A stretch of 64,000 bases of DNA from Bdellovibrionales bacterium (GCA_965199935.1 CBDATD010000001.1:491097-555096); one strand, 5' to 3'; counted from the first letter of the stretch, positions 12,761-42,263 are shown. Notes: generated by a model not told the origin, from the letters alone. Program-made: numbers and translations.

Positions 12761-13735
12761 TCAAATGGAAGGCTCCGTCTGTCTTACAACAGACTTCGAA
12801 TGCTCTTTTTCTGCTTTTGCGAAATGCAGTCTTTGGACAGCAATGTCAATGTATTGTTTATTAATTTCTACACCTATAAATTTTCTTCCCAACTCTTTGC
12901 AGGCCACAGCTGTTGTTCCGCTTCCCATAAAAGGATCCAACACAATGCTTTTTCTCTTTGTCGTTAAACTAATGAGGTATTTAAAAAGTGATAAGGGCTT
13001 CACTGTTTTATGGTGGTTAAAGGGGCCTTTTTCATCTTTTTTTGGTTTGTCCACTAAAAAAACTTTATCTATTTTGTGATGAATTAATTGATCTGTCATA
13101 GCATTGGATACAAACATATCTTTGTGCAATCCTTGTTTGACGTTTGCATTGATCAAAGAAACGTTGTATTTCATCGTATTGTTCAAATAGGTCCCTTCTG
13201 TTGGTTTTTGAGCCATGACGATAGGCTCGTAACAGGATTTTACTTGAGGAGTCTTCCACCCCTTGAATCGACTGTTGAGCTCTTCTTTCTCTTTTCTAGA
13301 TATATCCATTTTGTTAATAAAATGGTGAAGACTCATTGCTTTAGGCTGATTCTGCATATAAAGCCATATAAAACAATCTCTAATCTCAAACTCAGCATCG
13401 TCCACAGCACAAGCCATCCTATGATAAAGTCTTGGACTGGAAAATGAAAAGAAAAATCCTCCCGGCTTTAAAAGCCTAAAAATTTCCTTTGATATTTTAA
13501 GATACCATGAATAAAAAAACACTCCCTGCTCTTTATCAAATTTCATACCTGCCGGTAAATGCTTGATTGCATAAGGGTTCTCAGGGCTTTTTACTTTATC
13601 AGCATTCCAATTGTGATCCATTTTATCCAGAAAATAAGGAGGGTCTGTGAGTACAACATCTATGGAATTTTTCTTTAATTTTGATAAAACATCCCAGGCA
13701 GAACCATGAATAATTTGATTAATATACTTCTTCAT
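12761..13735 (-). CDS. DNA methyltransferase, beta-class, probably N6-adenine
   Basis: Motif IV TDPPY lies near the N-terminus and motif I FMGSGTT near the C-terminus, which is the beta-class permuted order. No nuclease-like neighbour. Confidence 0.85.
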   Translation of the reverse strand: MKKYINQIIHGSAWDVLSKLKKNSIDVVLTDPPYFLDKMDHNWNADKVKSPENPYAIKHLPAGMKFDKEQGVFFYSWYLKISKEIFRLLKPGGFFFSFSSPRLYHRMACAVDDAEFEIRDCFIWLYMQNQPKAMSLHHFINKMDISRKEKEELNSRFKGWKTPQVKSCYEPIVMAQKPTEGTYLNNTMKYNVSLINANVKQGLHKDMFVSNAMTDQLIHHKIDKVFLVDKPKKDEKGPFNHHKTVKPLSLFKYLISLTTKRKSIVLDPFMGSGTTAVACKELGRKFIGVEINKQYIDIAVQRLHFAKAEKEHSKSVVRQTEPSI

Positions 13736-30628: not shown

Positions 30629-31009
30629 ATGTTTACTCTTGCTTTTCAAAAAACCGGTAGTATGCTTTTTAAGCGGGGGATGCGTATGAGCTGTGCCAGA
30701 TGTGTTTTTATTTTATTAATTTTCAGCTTTTCACCGGCAAATGCAGAAGTTTGTGAATCTGCCTTCCATCCCCTTGAAAGAGTCCATAAAGCGGAAGAGC
30801 TTTTAAATAAGCAGTTAAGCCCCAAACAAAAATCAGCTCTTGAACAAGCTTATCTTGCCGGTGCAGGAAAGCTGGACAAAGACGGAAAAACTCCTGCTGA
30901 TCCAAACAGTTACACCCCTGCACAATTAAAAAAGAAAACAAGAATTTTAAAATGGGTTGGTTTCTCACTTGAAGAAATTCAACTGCTCATGCAAAAAAAC
31001 ATCATCTAA
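30629..31009 (+). CDS. Hypothetical small secreted protein
   Basis: The likely start is the ATG at 30686, which has a GGGGGA SD and gives the signal peptide MSCARCVFILLIFSFSPANA. Confidence 0.45.
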   Translation: MFTLAFQKTGSMLFKRGMRMSCARCVFILLIFSFSPANAEVCESAFHPLERVHKAEELLNKQLSPKQKSALEQAYLAGAGKLDKDGKTPADPNSYTPAQLKKKTRILKWVGFSLEEIQLLMQKNII

Positions 31010-31083: not shown

Positions 31084-31566
31084 CTAACATCCGTCTGGAT
31101 AAGCCAACCGCTCGTATTTTTTCACTAATTTTTCATTTCTATCAAGATACTTCCTCCCCAAATCCAAGTACCTCTTGTCTTTCTTATGTTTTCCAAATTT
31201 TCCTTCTTTTATTAGAGTCTGTAAAAGCTCCACGTTTTCTTTGGCTAAATCCTCCCATTCGTGAAAAGGGATGCATTTGTTTCCAAAATAAGCCACCTCA
31301 TACATATACTCTTGAAAGTGCCTGTAAATAGGCAACATATTATCAAAATATTTTATCCCATCAGTTTGCACCATCAGTTCTGCGGAAATCACTCCGGCTA
31401 GGCGAAATAACATGATATTTTTTTTTTCGTTCCATTTTAGATCCAATAAAGCCTCTAACAGTTTTGGACTTTGAAAAATATCCTTTCCGTTTTCCCTATA
31501 GTAATCTCTAGATTCTTCATAATTTCTCCTTGAGTAAAGAATATCTATAAATTTTTGTAACTTCAT
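31084..31566 (-). CDS. Hypothetical helical protein coupled to the RES-like ORF (candidate antitoxin or immunity protein)
   Basis: ATGA start/stop overlap with the upstream ORF. An AAGGAG SD sits inside the upstream gene. I recognise no HTH and no known family. Confidence 0.6.
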   Translation of the reverse strand: MKLQKFIDILYSRRNYEESRDYYRENGKDIFQSPKLLEALLDLKWNEKKNIMLFRLAGVISAELMVQTDGIKYFDNMLPIYRHFQEYMYEVAYFGNKCIPFHEWEDLAKENVELLQTLIKEGKFGKHKKDKRYLDLGRKYLDRNEKLVKKYERLAYPDGC

Positions 31567-31940
31567 GGAAACTCCTTAAAACTAATAAAATTGATTCCTT
31601 TGTTAGCTCTATCTGGAGCTGAAAGGACGATAATTCCTTTAAAGCCCTTCTTTTTAGCGATATGACCAATCACTTGAGTTATATCATAAGCATTTGTATC
31701 ATCCACAATTAACTTAGCAATATCATCTTTGTTTACATCAAGTTGTTTTAAAATTTTAGGATTTGTTAAATCCAGCACCTTGCCTGTTTCAGCAGGGTCA
31801 ATCAGCTTATAAAAAGTCTTATTTCCGGGTAGATCATTTTTCCCAAAACGGACTAAAAACTCTGCTCTAGAAGTTCCTTTTGTTAAAGAAGTATAAAGAG
31901 CATGATCCCCAACAGAGTATCTTCCTATATGTGACTTCAT
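31563..31940 (-). CDS. RES-domain-like protein (candidate NAD-targeting toxin)
   Basis: The Arg-Glu-Ser pattern has the expected spacing: GRYSVGDHALYTS, SRAEF, and YDITQVIGHIAKKKGFKGIIVLSAPDRANKGINFISF. At 125 aa it is short for the family. Confidence 0.6.
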   Translation of the reverse strand: MKSHIGRYSVGDHALYTSLTKGTSRAEFLVRFGKNDLPGNKTFYKLIDPAETGKVLDLTNPKILKQLDVNKDDIAKLIVDDTNAYDITQVIGHIAKKKGFKGIIVLSAPDRANKGINFISFKEFP

Positions 31941-35798: not shown

Positions 35799-36257
35799 AT
35801 GATCCGCAAAATCCGCTTAAAAGTCAGCTCTGGAAGAGGCGGAAGGGGATGTCTAAGCTTTGCTTCTTCTCGACGTAAAATTCGAGGAGGGCCGGATGGA
35901 GGAAATGGAGGCTCAGGGGGGGACGTATGGATGCGGGTAAATAATAAGAAAACCTCTCTATCTCATTTAAAAACAAATAAAATTTATCAAGCCGGCAATG
36001 GACAGCCTGGAGGGTCTCGACGCAAAACGGGACGCAAAGGAAAAAATTTAACTCTTGAAGTACCTCCTCACACATGGCTCAAAACCAAAAATCTCGAAAT
36101 TTTAATCAGTGAAGAAGAACCTTACCTTCTCCTTAAAGGAGGAAAAGGAGGAAAAGGCAATCATTATTTCAAAAACAGCGTCAACCAGGCTCCCCGCAAA
36201 GTAGGACCATTTGGAAAAACCAAAACTTTAGAAATTAATCTACAGGTGAAAAAATAA
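35799..36257 (+). CDS. Obg N-terminal (glycine-rich Obg-fold) domain only, with no GTPase domain
   Basis: GGRGCLSF..GGPDGGNGGSGGDVW..GGKGGKGN matches the Obg fold. The ORF stops at LEINLQVKK, where the G domain normally begins, and nadD starts 8 nt later. Confidence 0.75.
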   Translation: MIRKIRLKVSSGRGGRGCLSFASSRRKIRGGPDGGNGGSGGDVWMRVNNKKTSLSHLKTNKIYQAGNGQPGGSRRKTGRKGKNLTLEVPPHTWLKTKNLEILISEEEPYLLLKGGKGGKGNHYFKNSVNQAPRKVGPFGKTKTLEINLQVKK

Positions 36258-36265
36258 AACACGAT

Positions 36266-37231
36266 ATGAAAAAAAAAATTGGCATACTTGGGGGCAGTTT
36301 TGATCCTCCTCACAAAGGTCATAGATGGGCTGTTTCAACCTGTCTCAATCAACTAAAGTTGCACTTTCTTTACGTCATTCCATCTTATCAAACCCCTTGT
36401 AAAACCTCTTCTCACACACCCCCTGAGAAACGTCTGGAAATATTAGCAAAAACTCTAAAAGACATTCCTCAAGCTGAAATACTAGATATTGAAATGAAAC
36501 GAAAAGGGGTCAGTTATACAGTGGACACTTTAAATCAACTTTCTCTCGATACAGATGAAGTATATTTAATTATAGGGGAAGATTTGCTGTTTCAATTTCA
36601 CACGTGGAAAAACTTTGAACAAATTATCCAGAAGGTAAATTTAATTGTTTTATTTCATACTGATCTTAAAAAGAAAAACAATTGGCCGGTCGTTTTCCGA
36701 AAATATTTGAATAAATGGGACAAAAATACGGGATCATTCCACACGGGCAGGAAAGTCCATTTGATAAAAAACGACAGCCCCTTTAGAGATATTTCCTCAA
36801 CCCAGATTAGAAACAGACTGAGATTGGCTCTGCCTGTTTCGGATCTCCTGCATCCTTCAGTTTTTTCATTGGTAAAAAAACATTACAAACATTTACAGAA
36901 CAAATCTCAAATTTTTGAAGATATTATCCGTTTTCTCAAAGAAAAGGGAGCTTTGAATCCTCAATTTTTTCAATTTAGAGAAAAAATTTATGAATCTATT
37001 TTAGTCGCTTCAGGATTAAACACCCGGCACGTGCGGTCTTTATCTTCAGAAGTACAAAATTATATTTACAAAATGTATGGAATCTCCCCCCAGCATATCG
37101 AAGGAAACAGCCTCTCTCAGTGGATTGTCTTGGATTATGACTTTCTAATTATCCATATTTTTTATGATTATTTAAGACAATATTATCAATTGGAAGATTT
37201 GTGGCAAAAACACTCTTTTAAAAATAGATAA
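36266..37231 (+). CDS. nadD: Nicotinate-nucleotide adenylyltransferase fused to ribosome silencing factor (NadD-RsfS)
   Basis: The N-terminal roughly 200 aa carry GGSFDPPHKGH and ISSTQIR. The C-terminal roughly 110 aa carry the RsfS pattern IEGNSLSQWIVLDYDFLIIHIF..RQYYQLEDLW. It is a single ORF. Confidence 0.8.
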   Translation: MKKKIGILGGSFDPPHKGHRWAVSTCLNQLKLHFLYVIPSYQTPCKTSSHTPPEKRLEILAKTLKDIPQAEILDIEMKRKGVSYTVDTLNQLSLDTDEVYLIIGEDLLFQFHTWKNFEQIIQKVNLIVLFHTDLKKKNNWPVVFRKYLNKWDKNTGSFHTGRKVHLIKNDSPFRDISSTQIRNRLRLALPVSDLLHPSVFSLVKKHYKHLQNKSQIFEDIIRFLKEKGALNPQFFQFREKIYESILVASGLNTRHVRSLSSEVQNYIYKMYGISPQHIEGNSLSQWIVLDYDFLIIHIFYDYLRQYYQLEDLWQKHSFKNR

Positions 37232-37283
37232 TATCTATTTCAAGCCCCTCTGCAAACAAAAGAGAAAAGCCTACAGCCCTCTT

Positions 37284-37359
37284 TGGCTCAGGTGGAGGGA
37301 CTCGAACCCCCGACAGGGTGGTTAACAGCCACCTGCTCTACCAACTGAGCTACACCTGA
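37284..37359 (-). tRNA. tRNA-Asn (anticodon GTT), CCA encoded
   Basis: Hand-folded cloverleaf of 76 nt: acceptor TCAGGTG/CACCTGA, anticodon loop CTGTTAA, T-loop TTCGAGT. Confidence 0.95.
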
Positions 37360-37471
37360 AAAATCCTTCAAGAATTTAAACAATAGAACTCTTTTATGTC
37401 AATAATACTGTTCTCTTATATTGATTTCAGCATCTATAGAGGATAACTTAAATGACCAGGCTATTTCAAGA

Positions 37472-37558
37472 GGAGAGGTGGCAGAGCGGTTGATTGCACT
37501 GGTCTTGAAAACCAGCAGACCTTCACGGGTCTCGTGAGTTCGAATCTCACCCTCTCCG
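37472..37558 (+). tRNA. tRNA-Ser (anticodon TGA)
   Basis: 87 nt with acceptor GGAGAGG/CCTCTCC, anticodon loop CTTGAAA, a long variable arm and T-arm GTGAGTTCGAATCTCAC. Confidence 0.95.
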
Positions 37559-37756
37559 CACGAAGATATATACTGCGCCTTCAATCCAAATACACGCTGT
37601 TGTTCGTAAAAAATAAGCTGAAAAGACCCTTAAATTAAAGCCTAAACCGGTTGTTTCAATTTTAGGAATCTCTTTTAAACAAGGTTCCGCATCTTTACAA
37701 AACTCCGCACAGCCAACCTGAAATAAAAGCAATGATCCCAGTAAAAAACCCAACAT
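37547..37756 (-). CDS. Hypothetical small lipoprotein-like ORF
   Basis: Signal MLGFLLGSLLLFQVGC, very similar to the signal of the ORF at 2905. Its 3' end overlaps tRNA-Ser by 12 nt on the opposite strand, so the call is uncertain. Confidence 0.3.
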   Translation of the reverse strand: MLGFLLGSLLLFQVGCAEFCKDAEPCLKEIPKIETTGLGFNLRVFSAYFLRTTACIWIEGAVYIFVRRG

Positions 37757-37757
37757 T

Positions 37758-38105
37758 TTAATCCTCTTTATTTTCTAATACTTCCACAACCCCAACATCA
37801 CTGAAAAAAGGCAGGAAAGGGACACCCCAGTTTTTTCTATCCTGTTTTACAGTGAAAAATAAAGTGGTTATTAAAACAAAAATAATGCAGTTAAAAAGGT
37901 ATATGTAAAAGTGACTTCTTTTCTCAAAACCTTTAGTCTTATGACGAAAAATGAATTGCACAATCAAAGCAATGGAAAGTGCAGCGGTTGCAAACCTAAT
38001 ATCCCAATGGATTAAACCCCCTATTACAACCAATCCTAAGAATAATTTTAAAAAAGCTGTTGATGCATATATAAATTCACTTTTTAGTTTGTTAGGTATT
38101 CCCAT
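37758..38105 (-). CDS. Hypothetical 3-TM membrane protein
   Basis: 115 aa with a GGAG SD 9 nt upstream of the ATG. It follows the 58-aa ORF after 10 nt. Confidence 0.5.
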   Translation of the reverse strand: MGIPNKLKSEFIYASTAFLKLFLGLVVIGGLIHWDIRFATAALSIALIVQFIFRHKTKGFEKRSHFYIYLFNCIIFVLITTLFFTVKQDRKNWGVPFLPFFSDVGVVEVLENKED

Positions 38106-38115
38106 TTTTTAACTC

Positions 38116-38292
38116 CTAGAAGGGGACAGCAAACATACAATTACAAGCAAAGACTCCTGTCGCATCCATAAGATTTGAACCAAACTTTTGATCGTTGCGT
38201 ATAGTACGCTCTACATCAGTAATCATATGATTATATGCAATTCTGTTGTCTATTGGATATTGAGAGTGAGAAATTTTATAAAAAAACTTCAT
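38116..38292 (-). CDS. Hypothetical 58-aa peptide (below the ORF-track cutoff)
   Basis: Hand-translated as MKFFYKISHSQYPIDNRIAYNHMITDVERTIRNDQKFGSNLMDATGVFACNCMFAVPF. It is preceded by promoter cassette copy A. Confidence 0.4.
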   Translation of the reverse strand: MKFFYKISHSQYPIDNRIAYNHMITDVERTIRNDQKFGSNLMDATGVFACNCMFAVPF

Positions 38293-38364
38293 TAGCCGGG
38301 ACGGTAGTCCTCTATGATAGTAACTGTCAATATATTTTGAAATAGTGTAAAAAAATTACACTGT
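38293..38364 (-). repeat. Promoter/operator cassette copy A
   Basis: 72 bp, about 88 percent identical to 39323-39392. Contains the palindrome AGTGTAA-N5-TTACACT (38344-38362), TTGACA (38325-38330) and, after 18 nt, TACCGT (38301-38306), then 8 nt to the ATG. Confidence 0.8.
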
Positions 38365-38370
38365 TTTTGA

Positions 38371-38616
38371 CTATTTTAAGAGTTTTATCGGGTTTACCTT
38401 TAAGGCTTTGCTTATCAGTACAAGGGTTTTCAGGCTTATGTTTTTACGATTGCGTTGCTCTATATCCGTGACAGTGCTAAGAGACAGCTTTGTCTTATGG
38501 GAAAGATCAAGCTGTGTGAGTCCTCTCTGTTTCCTGATCCGTTTTACATTATGCTGACGATTGACAGTTTTTTACAGCTTGTCCAGAACGGCCAACATTA
38601 TGAGTATTGTTTTCAT
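38371..38616 (-). pseudogene. XRE-family HTH regulator interrupted by an in-frame TAA at codon 15
   Basis: The ATG at 38616 has an AAGGAGAT SD. The reading is MKTILIMLAVLDKL-TAA-KTVNRQHNVKRIRKQRGLTQLDLSHKTKLSLSTVTDIEQRNRKNISLKTLVLISKALKVNPIKLLK. There is no ATG, GTG or TTG after the stop and before the HTH. Confidence 0.7.
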
Positions 38617-38780
38617 TTCTTATCTCCTTTCTTTTCCTCTATACCAAGATGCTTTTCTATTTTTTTAAGCCTTTTTTGATTTTTTACGTCGTCAAAATAG
38701 CTAAGAAGCCACACAATAATAACAATTAGAAAATGATACTCAAACAACACTCTGAAAATTTCAATTAAACTTTCTTTCAT
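38613..38780 (-). CDS. Hypothetical 55-aa membrane protein
   Basis: MKESLIEIFRVLFEYHFLIVIIVWLLSYF.. It has ATGA overlaps with both the upstream and the downstream genes. Confidence 0.45.
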   Translation of the reverse strand: MKESLIEIFRVLFEYHFLIVIIVWLLSYFDDVKNQKRLKKIEKHLGIEEKKGDKK

Positions 38781-39322
38781 TTTTTTGGATCCGGGGTTTT
38801 GTTTCCACAGAAGGGGTCTCCGGTTACAATCGCACAAAATATTGCAAGCAACGCAAGTAATATTCCAGCTACACCATGAGCGGGACCTGAATCAGGTTCT
38901 GAACCAAATTCGTTTGTAAAATCTTCAAAAGACCCTCCTTCATAACTAAAAACAACTTCATTTGTTGCGTCCTCTATAGTAAAACCATACTGTACCATTT
39001 CAATCACATACTTCCTCATAAGTTCTTTTTTTCCGTAAGTTTTGGAAGGGCCCCCAAGACGCCCACGTCTAAAGTAATTCGGATGTTCTTCTATAATATA
39101 CACCGGTCCCATACGCCCCACAGACCCCTCATAATACAGGTGTATGGTGTTGCTTTTGTTTTCCATTCGGCACACCTGTTTGCTGTCACCACTAAAGGAA
39201 ATACAAGCACCTTTCTCCGGCATAAAATCATTTAAAATAAAACTGTCATTTTGACTTGAGTAAGAATAAGAACTTGAGAGAATAAGCCCGATTGAGAGAA
39301 AAACTTTGAGAATAAATCTCAT
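38777..39322 (-). CDS. Hypothetical secreted protein with a C-terminal TM anchor
   Basis: The ATG at 39322 gives the signal MRFILKVFLSIGLILSSSYS, and a C-terminal helix VAGILLALLAIFCAIV follows. The ORF is open to TTG at 39334. Confidence 0.6.
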   Translation of the reverse strand: MRFILKVFLSIGLILSSSYSYSSQNDSFILNDFMPEKGACISFSGDSKQVCRMENKSNTIHLYYEGSVGRMGPVYIIEEHPNYFRRGRLGGPSKTYGKKELMRKYVIEMVQYGFTIEDATNEVVFSYEGGSFEDFTNEFGSEPDSGPAHGVAGILLALLAIFCAIVTGDPFCGNKTPDPKK

Positions 39323-39392
39323 AATTCGGGACAATAGTCCTCTATGATTTTAAGTGTCAATATATTTTGAAATAGTGTAAAAATTACACTGT
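39323..39392 (-). repeat. Promoter/operator cassette copy B
   Basis: Palindrome AGTGTAA-N3-TTACACT (39374-39390), TTGACA (39355-39360), then 18 nt, TATTGT (39331-39336), then 8 nt to the ATG at 39322. Confidence 0.8.
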
Positions 39393-39466
39393 GTAAAGGA
39401 ATGGCGTGCAAAGAACCCAGAAAAGCCTGCCCTGCCTTTCAGAAACGGCGTTATTATCTCAAAAGA

Positions 39467-39527
39467 ACAGTGTAAATTTTAAATTTTACACTGTGTATTG
39501 ATATTTAATATCATAGAGCCTTATATT
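39467..39527 (+). promoter_or_regulatory. Third palindrome plus sigma-70-like promoter
   Basis: ACAGTGTAAA-N8-TTTACACTGT (39467-39494), TTGATA (39498-39503), then 18 nt, TATATT (39522-39527). The ATCATAGAG block is shared with copies A and B. Confidence 0.6.
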
Positions 39528-39574
39528 TTCCTTGATTGTGAGATTTGTTTTTACAAAGAACAGGGGGAAAAATA

Positions 39575-39940
39575 ATGAAGTATTTTTTTATTTTTATATT
39601 CAGTTTATGTTCTTTCAGTGCGTATTCTCATATAATGGATGAGGGAGTGAGTACAAATTATAGTGGAATGTGGTCAGATACCACTATAAGTGTTGATGAA
39701 AGACGATTTATCCACAATTATCCTGTTTACGGAGCGAGTATAAGTAAAGTGAGAGCATATTTATATTTTATGTTTACAGATTATCTTTTTCATTATCATT
39801 ATATTGATCCCAATACCGATCATAAGCACAGATGGGTTAAAATAAGTGAGGAAGAATATAAATTCTTGGCAATCGAGAATGCACGCTTTTTTGTGAACCA
39901 CTCAAATAGTTTTGGTTCAAAAATAGAAGCTTATTATTGA
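39575..39940 (+). CDS. Hypothetical small secreted protein
   Basis: A GGGGGA SD precedes the ATG at 39575, giving the signal MKYFFIFIFSLCSFSAYS. I recognise no family. Confidence 0.55.
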   Translation: MKYFFIFIFSLCSFSAYSHIMDEGVSTNYSGMWSDTTISVDERRFIHNYPVYGASISKVRAYLYFMFTDYLFHYHYIDPNTDHKHRWVKISEEEYKFLAIENARFFVNHSNSFGSKIEAYY

Positions 39941-40003
39941 ACATAAACCTGAAAACCATTGTACTGATAAGCCGAGCCTTAAAGGTCAACCCCGATAAAA
40001 CTA
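39940..40003 (+). pseudogene. Fragment: 3' end of an XRE gene, an inverted copy of 38381-38442
   Basis: About 58 of 63 nt are identical to the reverse complement of the XRE gene's 3' end. It translates as NINLKTIVLISRALKVNP.., and the homology starts exactly at the stop codon of the preceding ORF. Confidence 0.75.
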
Positions 40004-40020
40004 GATTATTTTCTGAGAGG

Positions 40021-40034
40021 GTGTAAAATTTACA
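40021..40034 (+). promoter_or_regulatory. Fourth, imperfect copy of the palindrome (GTGTAAA-A-TTTACA)
   Basis: It lies in the same position relative to the XRE 3' fragment as the palindrome at 38344 does relative to the XRE gene. Confidence 0.5.
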
Positions 40035-40105
40035 AAAAAAAAGAAAAAACTAGTATTTTTACATCTATGTGTAGTACTCTCACCCTTCAGACAGGAGGTT
40101 TTGTT

Positions 40106-40435
40106 ATGGGCAATGTAAAATACATAATTTTGGCTTTATTCTCACAATTTGCTTTCGCAGGGATAGTTCATCTTGATGATGTGGACCACCCATCGCATGC
40201 AATCGGAGAAACAGCAGTTCATTGTGATCCAAATAACCCCCGGAAGTGTTTAAAAGTGACATCAATTGGAAATAATGAGTACCTCACCCAACCCATCTTT
40301 TACAACGAGACGGAAGCTGTACAAGAAGACTTACAGCAAAAAAACCACCCCATGGACTATGAGCCTTCTAAACTAGAAAATGAACATAGAAAAGGTGCAG
40401 ATAGAAAAGGTGCAGATACATTTTACTTTCAGTAA
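40106..40435 (+). CDS. Hypothetical small secreted protein
   Basis: An AGGAGG SD lies 7 nt upstream of the ATG at 40106, giving the signal MGNVKYIILALFSQFAFAG. There is a tandem RKGAD-RKGAD near the C-terminus. Confidence 0.55.
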   Translation: MGNVKYIILALFSQFAFAGIVHLDDVDHPSHAIGETAVHCDPNNPRKCLKVTSIGNNEYLTQPIFYNETEAVQEDLQQKNHPMDYEPSKLENEHRKGADRKGADTFYFQ

Positions 40436-40508
40436 GATTTAAATTTTATTGAAGGAGAACAATAGCCTTACTGTCAAAATCTATGTAGGATGGGGTTTTT
40501 TGTAGAAA

Positions 40509-40682
40509 ATGAAGATCACTAAAAAGCAACTTTACTTATATGTGAAAATTAATTTTCTTATTCTGTCTCTCTTTGTTGTACTCATGTCTATGTACTCTCT
40601 AAGAAAACAGGGACTGCCCGATTCTGTCACAGAACCTCTTCATTTAAAAAACAAAAGAACTGCAACACTTCAAATCAAATAA
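40509..40682 (+). CDS. Possible 57-aa membrane peptide
   Basis: Hand-translated as MKITKKQLYLYVKINFLILSLFVVLMSMYSLRKQG... No clear SD. Confidence 0.25.
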   Translation: MKITKKQLYLYVKINFLILSLFVVLMSMYSLRKQGLPDSVTEPLHLKNKRTATLQIK

Positions 40683-40703
40683 CATTCGAAATAAGGCTGT
40701 GCG

Positions 40704-41981
40704 TTATGATTTTTTTAGAATGACTTTTTTTCCATCCATATAAGGCCGAATCACTTCAGGAACTGTGACACTTCCGTCTTCATTTTGATAGTTTTCTAAG
40801 ACAGCAATAAGAGTGCGGCCTACAGCCAAACCAGAGCCATTTAAGGTATGCACCAAAGAAACCTTTTGATCTTTCGATTTAAAGCGAATTTTAGCCCTCC
40901 TAGCTTGATAATCCTCGTAATTGGAACAAGAACTAATCTCTCTAAAAACTTTTTGGGAAGGAAGCCAAACTTCTAAATCGTAACACTTGGAGGCTCCAAA
41001 ACCCAAGTCCCCCGTACAAAGATTAATCACTCGATAAGGGAGATTAAGATCTTTTAAAATACCCTCCGCATGAGAAGTTAATTTTTCCAATTGGTCATAA
41101 GAAGAAGAAGGATGTGCAAATGCCACCAACTCCACTTTTGTAAATTGGTGCTGTCGAATCAATCCTTTTGTGTCCTGCCCGTAAGCTCCTGCTTCTGAAC
41201 GAAAACAAGGAGTGTAAGCAGTTAATTGTATTGGCAGTTTTTTCTCCGGCAAAATTTCATTTGCAAAAAAATTAGTAACAGAAACTTCAGCAGTAGGAAT
41301 AAGGTATCCTTCATAATTTGACAGATGAAAAACATCTTCTTTGAATTTAGGAAACTGCCCCGTATGGATTAAAGAAGAATGATTAACAATATAGGGAGTG
41401 CTTAACTCTTCATATCCATTTTTTTTGATGTGTATATCCAGCATATATTGAGCTAAAGCCCGCTCCAGCCAGGCTATCTCTCCCCTCAAGAAGGAAAATC
41501 TAGCTCCCGCTGTTTTAGCCGCTCTTTGAGTGTCAATATGTTGAGGTGCAATTTCCAAATGAGAACGGACAGGAAATGAGAACTGCCGGGGGGTTCCAGC
41601 TGATCTAATCAGCCGGCTGTCTTCACCTTTAAACCCCACAGGCACACTGGAATGACAAACGTTAGGAAGATGAAGAAGGATTTCAGTAATATTTTCTTCA
41701 AGGTTTCTTAATTTTTCTTGGAGAGCAGCTATTTGATCTCCAACAGCTTGAGCTTTCAATAACAATTCTTTTTTTTCATCAAATTGAGATTTCTTCAAAT
41801 CTTTTTCCAAAGATTTCCTTCTAACAATAGATTGATCCATCTGGAAAATAATCTTCTTTCTGGACTGATTGAGTTTTATAACACGATCCATTGAGGATGT
41901 ATCTTCACCCCTATTTTTCAAACTAGTTAAGTATCTATTTTGAAATTCTGGATCTTTTTCATATCGTTTAAGATCAATCAT
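40704..41981 (-). CDS. serS: Seryl-tRNA synthetase
   Basis: N-terminal coiled coil, motif 2 FRSEAGAYGQDTKGLIRQHQFTKVE and motif 3 GSGLAVGRTLIAVLEN. Confidence 0.95.
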   Translation of the reverse strand: MIDLKRYEKDPEFQNRYLTSLKNRGEDTSSMDRVIKLNQSRKKIIFQMDQSIVRRKSLEKDLKKSQFDEKKELLLKAQAVGDQIAALQEKLRNLEENITEILLHLPNVCHSSVPVGFKGEDSRLIRSAGTPRQFSFPVRSHLEIAPQHIDTQRAAKTAGARFSFLRGEIAWLERALAQYMLDIHIKKNGYEELSTPYIVNHSSLIHTGQFPKFKEDVFHLSNYEGYLIPTAEVSVTNFFANEILPEKKLPIQLTAYTPCFRSEAGAYGQDTKGLIRQHQFTKVELVAFAHPSSSYDQLEKLTSHAEGILKDLNLPYRVINLCTGDLGFGASKCYDLEVWLPSQKVFREISSCSNYEDYQARRAKIRFKSKDQKVSLVHTLNGSGLAVGRTLIAVLENYQNEDGSVTVPEVIRPYMDGKKVILKKS

Positions 41982-41984
41982 AAT

Positions 41985-42263
41985 TTACGCCGCAGACATA
42001 CTAACATAAAGTTGGAATAAAAAAAATAAAGAGATAAATAATAAATTACATACAATAAGACCCATAAATTTATAATTCCAGACAAGCTTTACGAAAGCCA
42101 AAGTCATTGTTAAGGTGATAAAAATAACGGAAAACACTCCAGATTTAAGCAGTGTTTGAACAATAATAGCTATTGTAAACCCTAATATAAACCCAGAAAA
42201 AACTTTTAAAAACAATAATAAAAGCCATGAAATAAATTTTACATCAGTCTTAGAGTTCATCAC
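41985..42263 (-). CDS. Hypothetical small membrane protein
   Basis: 92 aa with three hydrophobic helices. It is packed between the TPR gene and serS with 3-4 nt junctions. Confidence 0.5.
   Translation of the reverse strand: MMNSKTDVKFISWLLLLFLKVFSGFILGFTIAIIVQTLLKSGVFSVIFITLTMTLAFVKLVWNYKFMGLIVCNLLFISLFFLFQLYVSMSAA

Follow-up and report, generated by a model that had tools for sequence, protein, structure and literature searches.

A probable lineage-specific islet of small, predicted exported and membrane proteins between tRNA-Ser(UGA) and serS in a Bdellovibrionales bacterium

The described systems that come closest to the locus treated here are the XRE/Cro-C1 autoregulated cassettes, the genomic islands linked to tRNA genes, and, in bacteria with small genomes, families of exported or surface paralogues whose 5' ends are conserved, such as the variable lipoproteins of Mycoplasma and the paralogous families of Borrelia. 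Our locus is an islet of about 3.1 kb between tRNA-Ser(UGA) and serS in a Bdellovibrionales bacterium. We studied it within a stretch of 64,000 nucleotides (GCA_965199935.1, CBDATD010000001.1:491097-555096), which we call the window throughout; positions are counted from its first letter. The islet holds short open reading frames (ORFs), lettered A to C and E to I, and a frame for one XRE regulator (Table 1). We lean towards reading it as an accessory islet, specific to its lineage, for Sec-exported and membrane proteins, which would have arisen by duplication from XRE-autoregulated cassettes in a host with a reduced genome. From their sequences F, G, H and the lipoprotein-like A are predicted to be exported, while B, E and I are predicted to sit in the inner membrane.

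The duplication is seen in the control regions, P1 to P4. A 90-nucleotide direct repeat (38264-38353 and 39294-39383) is 81% identical and has an exact core of 28 nucleotides, a core that appeared in no shuffle. The repeat takes in promoter and leader and reaches about ten codons into both C and F. Palindromes of the form GTGTAA-N-TTACAC occur three times in the 64 kb, and all three are in the islet control regions P1, P2 and P3, which also share the promoter pattern TTGAYA-N5-WATCATAGAG. In P1 the palindrome GTGTAA-A5-TTACAC (38345-38361) stands with a -35 element TTCAAA, a -10 element TATCAT and a short leader containing a GGAC/GTCC hairpin. P3 has a near-perfect palindrome of 28 nucleotides (39467-39494) lying over its -35 element TTTACA, followed by a -10 element TATCAT and a GGGGGA ribosome-binding site. 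P4 is built from a weaker palindrome, TGTAAAATTTACA (40022-40034), a -35 element TTTACA, a -10 element TAGTAT and an AGGAGG ribosome-binding site. The nearest relative we have is a Bdellovibrionales metagenome-assembled genome (MAG) with a 1.40-Mb chromosome (L003, OZ240230.1), whose SerS is the best match to ours at 81% identity. It keeps the TGTAAAATTTACA block upstream of its orthologue of H and has GTGTAG-TACT-TTACAC beside the ribosome-binding site of that gene.

The same strain is present in two ENA metagenome contigs, L001 and L002, at 99.8-99.9% identity over 37201-41000; by three assemblies we mean the window, L001 and L002. In L001 and L002 the A-run in the P1 palindrome (position 38348) has one A more than in the window, which may reflect a homopolymer error of long-read sequencing or a true difference in the length of the operator spacer. 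Between the divergent P2 and P3 there is also a GC-rich hairpin, GAAAAGCCTGCCCTGCCTTTC (39420-39440), in a place where a terminator is unexpected. Its flank resembles 37251-37272 near tRNA-Asn (22 nucleotides, 82%).

The XRE frame has a good match to HTH_3 (PF01381), 47.3 bits against a cut-off of 23 (E 2.1e-12), and its ATG at 38616 is well placed, with AAGGAG upstream and an ATGA overlap with the stop of E. Codon 15 is TAA (38572-38574) in all three assemblies, and there is no ATG, GTG or TTG in the frame between this TAA and the helix-turn-helix (HTH) part. That part scores -0.06 on the codon log-odds measure described below, and the frame has no gene call in L001. The nearest intact homologue in a word-indexed search, P0017 (65 or 74 amino acids, 73% identical), adjoins a serine recombinase on L086; the positions of its ATG starts read ACT and GTA in the window. 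An alternative genetic code that would rescue the frame is ruled out, as serS itself ends in TAA. The gene is probably a pseudogene.

The islet has a second, 3' fragment of XRE directly 3' of G and out of frame with it. The same type of junction is found at L085, a second locus from the same population, where one paralogue of G is followed by an XRE remnant of about 65 nucleotides and a half-operator, and another, P0016, by an XRE remnant of 17 nucleotides. All of the XRE copies seen are defective: one is full length but interrupted by the TAA at codon 15, and of the rest only 3' stumps of varied length are left.

G itself is a signal peptide followed by a predicted beta domain of about 100 amino acids. 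The family has at least four copies in the genome, G and three paralogues at L085. The sole database homologue of G is P0016, 39% identical over the BLASTP local alignment and encoded on the same 991-kb contig. Two motifs, F-x-x-Y-x-x-H-x-H and ISExEY, are conserved in the family. Between G and P0016 a block of 58 nucleotides in the signal peptide is 100% identical, with identity elsewhere of only about 35-55%. The ratio of nonsynonymous to synonymous substitution rates (dN/dS) between G and its L085 copy is 2.26, which falls short of significance (Fisher p = 0.10), and it involves a contig of only 1.77x coverage; we do not claim positive selection on G. An AlphaFold model of G is all-beta and of moderate quality, with a predicted local distance difference test (pLDDT) score of 66 and a predicted template modelling (pTM) score of 0.57. 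A Foldseek search of this model against PDB and BFVD returned nothing better than E 0.3, and profile searches against PDB sequences were negative. Scans of JGI metagenomes gave no relatives of G, and the XRE scan there gave distant XREs only. The promoter region of the third G paralogue has a run of about 10 G (L085 2596-2610, on the 1.77x contig), which could be a slipped-strand tract for phase variation.

The anatomy of the two loci suggests the following history. The islet would have grown by segmental duplication of one type of cassette. The ancestral cassette would have run from a palindromic operator through a sigma-70-type promoter and one or two genes for exported or membrane proteins to a terminal XRE repressor gene. 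By binding to the GTGTAA..TTACAC palindromes, which stand beside or over the -35 element, XRE would have autoregulated each cassette. The mature parts of the paralogues diverge fast, with the promoter and signal-peptide blocks staying similar or identical, and in the simplest history all of the XRE copies would have decayed after the duplications. Because all of the XRE copies are defective, the cassettes are presumably constitutive now, or else controlled in trans by an unseen factor.

Several points weigh against this account and should be set out plainly. The palindrome spacers are unequal, 5 nucleotides in P1 (6 in L001 and L002), 3 in P2 and 10 in P3, which is awkward for a single dimeric HTH protein. 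L003 has its palindrome and the TGTAAAATTTACA block with no XRE nearby, so the sites may be targets of some other factor, or no more than promoter elements. An intact XRE that one word-indexed search missed may still exist elsewhere in the genome. Some of the defects in the paralogues at L085 may be sequencing errors given the 1.77x coverage of that contig. ORF C has the lowest codon score in the islet, 0.11, and is borderline; it may be decayed or newly formed. Finally, the biological role of the products can only be inferred. The products may be clade-specific envelope or extracellular proteins, and we would suggest, weakly, that interaction with prey or host is a plausible use for them.

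To judge whether the ORFs are genes we used a codon log-odds score with 32 long window genes as the training set; on this score true genes have a mean of 0.24 (standard deviation 0.10) and spurious ORFs of at least 55 codons have a mean of -0.08 with a 95th percentile of 0.09. The called frame is the best of six for A, B, C, E, F, G, H and I, with 0.11-0.22 bits per codon. Good Shine-Dalgarno sites precede A (AGAGGA), B (AGGAG), G (GGGGGA), H (AGGAGG) and the XRE ATG (AAGGAG). The stop of F overlaps the start of E as ATGA, in the same way as E overlaps XRE, and A starts 1 nucleotide past the stop of B. The last codons of A overlap the 3' end of tRNA-Ser by 13 nucleotides on the opposite strand. 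By these features the ORFs look coding, orphans though they are.

Table 1. Features in and around the islet, with window coordinates (codon score in bits per codon)
Feature	Coordinates	Strand	Length	Codon score	Remarks
tRNA-Asn(GUU)	37284..37359	-			ARAGORN, Rfam 68 bits; pairs with tRNA-Ser
tRNA-Ser(UGA)	37472..37559	+			ARAGORN, Rfam; left islet boundary
ORF A	37547..37756	-	69 aa	0.19	gene call in ENA contig L001
ORF B	37758..38105	-	115 aa	0.13	
ORF C	38116..38292	-	58 aa	0.11	
Control module P1	38293..38370	-			predicted driver of C-B-A
XRE (HTH_3) frame	38371..38616	-	81 codons		probable pseudogene
ORF E	38613..38780	-	55 aa	0.22	
ORF F	38777..39322	-	181 aa	0.18	
Control module P2	39323..39400	-			P1 duplicate; palindrome GTGTAA-A3-TTACAC 39375-39389; predicted driver of F-E-XRE
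Control module P3	39463..39574	+			divergent from P2; predicted driver of G
ORF G	39575..39940	+	121 aa		
Second XRE 3' fragment	39940..40002	+	63 nt		inverted repeat of 38381-38442, 90% identical
Control region P4	40003..40105	+			predicted driver of H; partly conserved in L003
ORF H	40106..40435	+	109 aa		
ORF I	40509..40682	+	57 aa		
serS	40704..41981	-			right islet boundary

Hydropathy gives N-terminal signal-like hydrophobic segments in A, F, G and H. The predicted signal ends are AFA|G in H and AYS|H in G, and A has QVGC, which is lipobox-like. Transmembrane segments are predicted in B (three), E (one, besides a charged tail), I (one) and F (one, C-terminal). Scans with four libraries (Pfam, NCBIfam, PHROGs and PADLOC) recognise XRE and no other family among the islet ORFs. 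A, B, C, E and H were compared with curated hidden Markov model (HMM) libraries and local loci. The only family match of B is a sub-threshold one to MASE8 in Pfam, and no plasmid or viral relative of B was found. Nothing similar to the islet is present in the phage, plasmid, IMG/VR or JGI metagenome collections, and in a collection of 15 billion proteins the clusters of the islet proteins are singletons or pairs. Apart from the signal peptides there is no paralogy among A to I. An Rfam scan of the islet region gave the two tRNAs and no other known RNA element.

F is the other protein in the islet with a small family of its own. An exhaustive phmmer search of 1.84 billion representative proteins found its own cluster and three others only; the relatives, which come from other metagenomes, are 44-61% identical. 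P0014 (185 amino acids) is 44% identical to F with a nearly identical signal peptide, and P0013 (86 amino acids) and P0015 (77 amino acids) align with the C-terminal half of F. The layout of F is a signal peptide, a small domain and then a conserved C-terminal module, which in the family alignment runs from [DE]P[ED]SG through a transmembrane helix to GDPFCG; a GGS motif is conserved as well. The structure model of F is unusable (pLDDT 49). The gene for P0014 stands beside purL on L083, alone, and about 125-bp tandem repeats lie downstream of it before purL (L083 8640-8900). The gene for P0015 on L084 is 3' of an IS200-type transposase fragment and 5' of a small membrane ORF. The tail of F recalls the PEP-CTERM and VPDSG-CTERM sorting signals. 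We dropped this candidate, as no NCBIfam CTERM model matched the C-terminal 39-49 residues of F, P0013 and P0015 at E <= 10.

It is important to realize that the islet is not accessory from end to end. The interval from tRNA-Ser to serS is 3.1 kb in the window, 1.57 kb in L003 and 95 nucleotides in Bdellovibrio sp. HCB290, where the order is TPR protein, small membrane ORF, serS, tRNA-Ser. SerS of our genome is about 50% identical to that of Bdellovibrio and other MAGs. In L003 the interval contains I, an H-like gene and an unrelated signal-peptide protein of 161 amino acids, and A to G are absent. I is 76-79% identical in L003 (E 7e-22) with a dN/dS of 0.08, compared with 0.11 for serS and 0.09 for nadD. 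It is a predicted single-pass membrane protein and adjoins serS in L003 too. By this ratio I is under strong purifying selection. It has no gene call in L001 or L002, and the protein collection contains no identical sequence; I is probably a small gene that was missed. The orthologue of H in L003 is divergent (119 amino acids, E 2e-4, dN/dS 0.41) and has the same position. H-like matches near serS at L004 and L005 were rejected as they lie inside unrelated longer ORFs. Because H and I are kept in the nearest relative they belong to the core of the lineage and not to the accessory cargo; the comparison makes them, as we read it, older, conserved neighbours of serS. The truly variable part is about 2.5 kb, roughly 37560-40060.

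Much of the original prediction for this DNA holds up. It described short ORFs within 37547-40703 that belong to no recognised family save an XRE regulator, some with signal peptides and several of them small membrane proteins, arranged as cassettes behind duplicated promoter/operator modules and beginning at a tRNA 3' end with no integrase, transposase or tRNA-derived repeat. We find the same frames, families, repeats and boundary. The regulator itself matches its family above the cut-off, and to this extent the prediction was right, but the gene is not intact. Its description of the islet as accessory applies to A to G and not to H and I. The interval turns out to be variable among relatives; it is not a conserved syntenic block of housekeeping genes, and the ORFs do have a coding signature.

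The islet might instead have come in as a mobile element: tRNA-Ser(UGA) would have been the point of entry for an integrative element that then decayed, losing its integrase and att sites, and what is left would be its cargo genes and its XRE module for immunity or regulation. We think this unlikely. The islet abuts the 3' end of tRNA-Ser, but there is no match to an integrase, recombinase or transposase among the window and islet ORFs in Pfam, NCBIfam or PHROGs, and no second copy of the tRNA-Ser 3' end in the window even when 2-3 mismatches are allowed. L003 does have a 57-nucleotide direct repeat of the 3' end and flank of tRNA-Ser(UGA) (13104-13160 and 13333-13389, 98% identical, 229 nucleotides apart), which looks like the att scar of a lost integrative element and shows this tRNA to be an integration target in the clade. 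That repeat, however, lies between the tRNA and nadD and not on the side of the islet. The composition of the islet is the most deviant of any 3.1-kb stretch of the window, with a 4-mer distance of 0.263 against a mean of 0.164 (standard deviation 0.021, 110 comparison windows), and its GC content is 0.347 against 0.380, slightly low, yet inside the range of a window that is itself low at 38%. The codon-usage scores, on the other hand, resemble those of resident genes. The nearest intact XRE has a serine recombinase beside it and one relative of F is beside a transposase fragment, whereas the paralogues of G are at another chromosomal locus and F has relatives in contexts that are not mobile, such as purL on L083. 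An origin from a prophage remnant or a plasmid was also considered and rejected, because the only PHROGs match is XRE and there is no similarity to phage, plasmid or viral contigs in the collections named above. An integron-like series of gene and palindrome units is ruled out too, since the 3' elements are XRE stumps of different lengths and there is no integrase.

The idea that the islet encodes secreted effectors or toxins under common regulation, each with a small membrane protein for immunity (F/E and B/A as the pairs), fares worse, and we consider it very unlikely. F is exported by prediction and is translationally coupled to the small membrane protein E by ATGA, and a similar pairing follows the relative of F on L084; against this, the relative of F on L083 stands alone and G and H have no membrane partner. 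The paralogues of G diverge fast, with a dN/dS above 1 that is not significant, and the host is probably predatory or host-dependent. None of the four libraries gave a toxin, immunity, bacteriocin-leader, secretion-system or defence domain, the G model has no structural match and the F model cannot be used. That the set is regulated is doubtful in view of the XRE frame, with TAA at codon 15, no usable start after it and only 3' fragments elsewhere, and for cognate effectors and immunity proteins neither the domain libraries nor the Foldseek search of G offered any positive evidence. The least probable explanation we consider is that the islet is mostly non-functional decaying DNA, its ORFs being remains of pseudogenes or frames that arose by chance in the AT-rich spacer of a shrinking genome. 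The broken XRE copies, a coding fraction of just 73%, the borderline C, an ORF A whose 3' end extends over part of the tRNA and the flank, and the singleton or paired clusters are what one would expect of debris. Debris would not be expected to have ORFs that are all best in their own frame and above the spurious 95th percentile, ribosome-binding sites and coupled starts, strong purifying selection on I, and specific motifs kept in diverged relatives of F and G.

There is also a bolder version of the duplication account, which we think quite unlikely. F and G would be founding members of clade-restricted, diversifying families of secreted factors in an obligately prey- or host-dependent Bdellovibrionales lineage with a reduced genome. 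Variants would be made with a duplicated promoter and signal-peptide handle kept identical by gene conversion, and loss of the repressor would have locked the repertoire on. This reading draws on the 58-nucleotide identical block in G and P0016 and on a dN/dS above 1 that is not significant. If it were true, it would be a mechanism of effector or antigen diversification that is undescribed for predatory bacteria. If instead the islet is what we lean towards, an accessory set grown from duplicated cassettes, then a shrinking genome of a predatory or host-dependent bacterium goes on inventing small exported proteins and multiplying them, even as it loses the gene that regulated them. The yield is new families for the proteins F and G, both with conserved motifs, and a conserved small gene, I, beside serS. 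The locus is best treated as a catalogue entry and a list of candidates for those who may culture or image the lineage. It is not a recognisable new molecular system and it opens no long-standing question.

Some neighbouring features deserve a record. By blastn, the window (37239-37558) and L003 (12795-13121) have the tRNA-Asn/tRNA-Ser pair in opposite orientations with respect to nadD and serS, and the orientation of serS to tRNA-Ser in L003 is that of Bdellovibrio. Between the TPR protein and serS is a hydrophobic ORF of 92 amino acids with no Pfam family (41985-42263, minus strand), which is 92% identical in L003 with a dN/dS of 0.05; Bdellovibrio sp. HCB290 has an ORF of 102 amino acids in its place, likened to it by size and position only. 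The 321-amino-acid ORF at 36266-37231 (plus strand) fuses NadD (CTP_transf_like) with RsfS, a fusion kept in L003 (322 amino acids). Directly 5' of nadD is an Obg homologue of 152 amino acids (35799-36257, plus strand; 156 amino acids in L003, 14368-14838, minus strand) that has the GTP1_OBG N-terminal domain only (Pfam E 3e-39), and no GTPase domain is encoded at the locus in the window or in L003. So short an Obg is unusual for an essential GTPase, and the gene could be split or relocated. Another small spot that varies is found between tatC and asnS (31084-31940, minus strand). It has a RES-domain protein of 125 amino acids, truncated against the Pfam model (E 3.5e-6), and an orphan ORF of 160 amino acids starts in a 4-nucleotide overlap with its end. 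The spot also holds a signal-peptide ORF of 126 amino acids at 30629-31009, and L003 has a protein of 484 amino acids instead.

How, then, does the islet compare with the known systems? Near the C-terminus the F proteins have a polar [DE]P[ED]SG and next to it a transmembrane helix, and in this they are like the PEP-CTERM and VPDSG-CTERM signals. The tail after the helix is unlike them, being GDPFCG and a mixed charged stretch with no Arg-rich cluster, and no exosortase is known here. With the XRE/Cro-C1 cassettes, such as restriction-modification C proteins and phage repressor modules, the islet shares its HTH_3 regulator, which PADLOC Control_protein and HTH models match at E 1e-9 to 1e-10, and inverted repeats at or beside the promoters of the regulator's own operon. 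It differs in having no restriction-modification, phage or toxin genes, in a regulator gene that is last in its operon and carries a nonsense codon, in spacers that are not uniform and in a cargo of orphan exported proteins. Compared with tRNA-linked genomic islands, it has no integrase, att direct repeat or mobility genes, it is small (about 2.5 kb) and its H and I are ancestral; like them it abuts a tRNA 3' end, varies in content between close relatives and is atypical in composition. Set beside what is generally known of the Mycoplasma and Borrelia families, it shows no phase-variation switch and no size variation based on repeats, its family has about four copies and G is not a lipoprotein. 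The likeness to those families is in the pattern itself: the block of promoter and signal peptide is duplicated and stays similar, or even identical, from copy to copy, and it is the mature parts that diverge.

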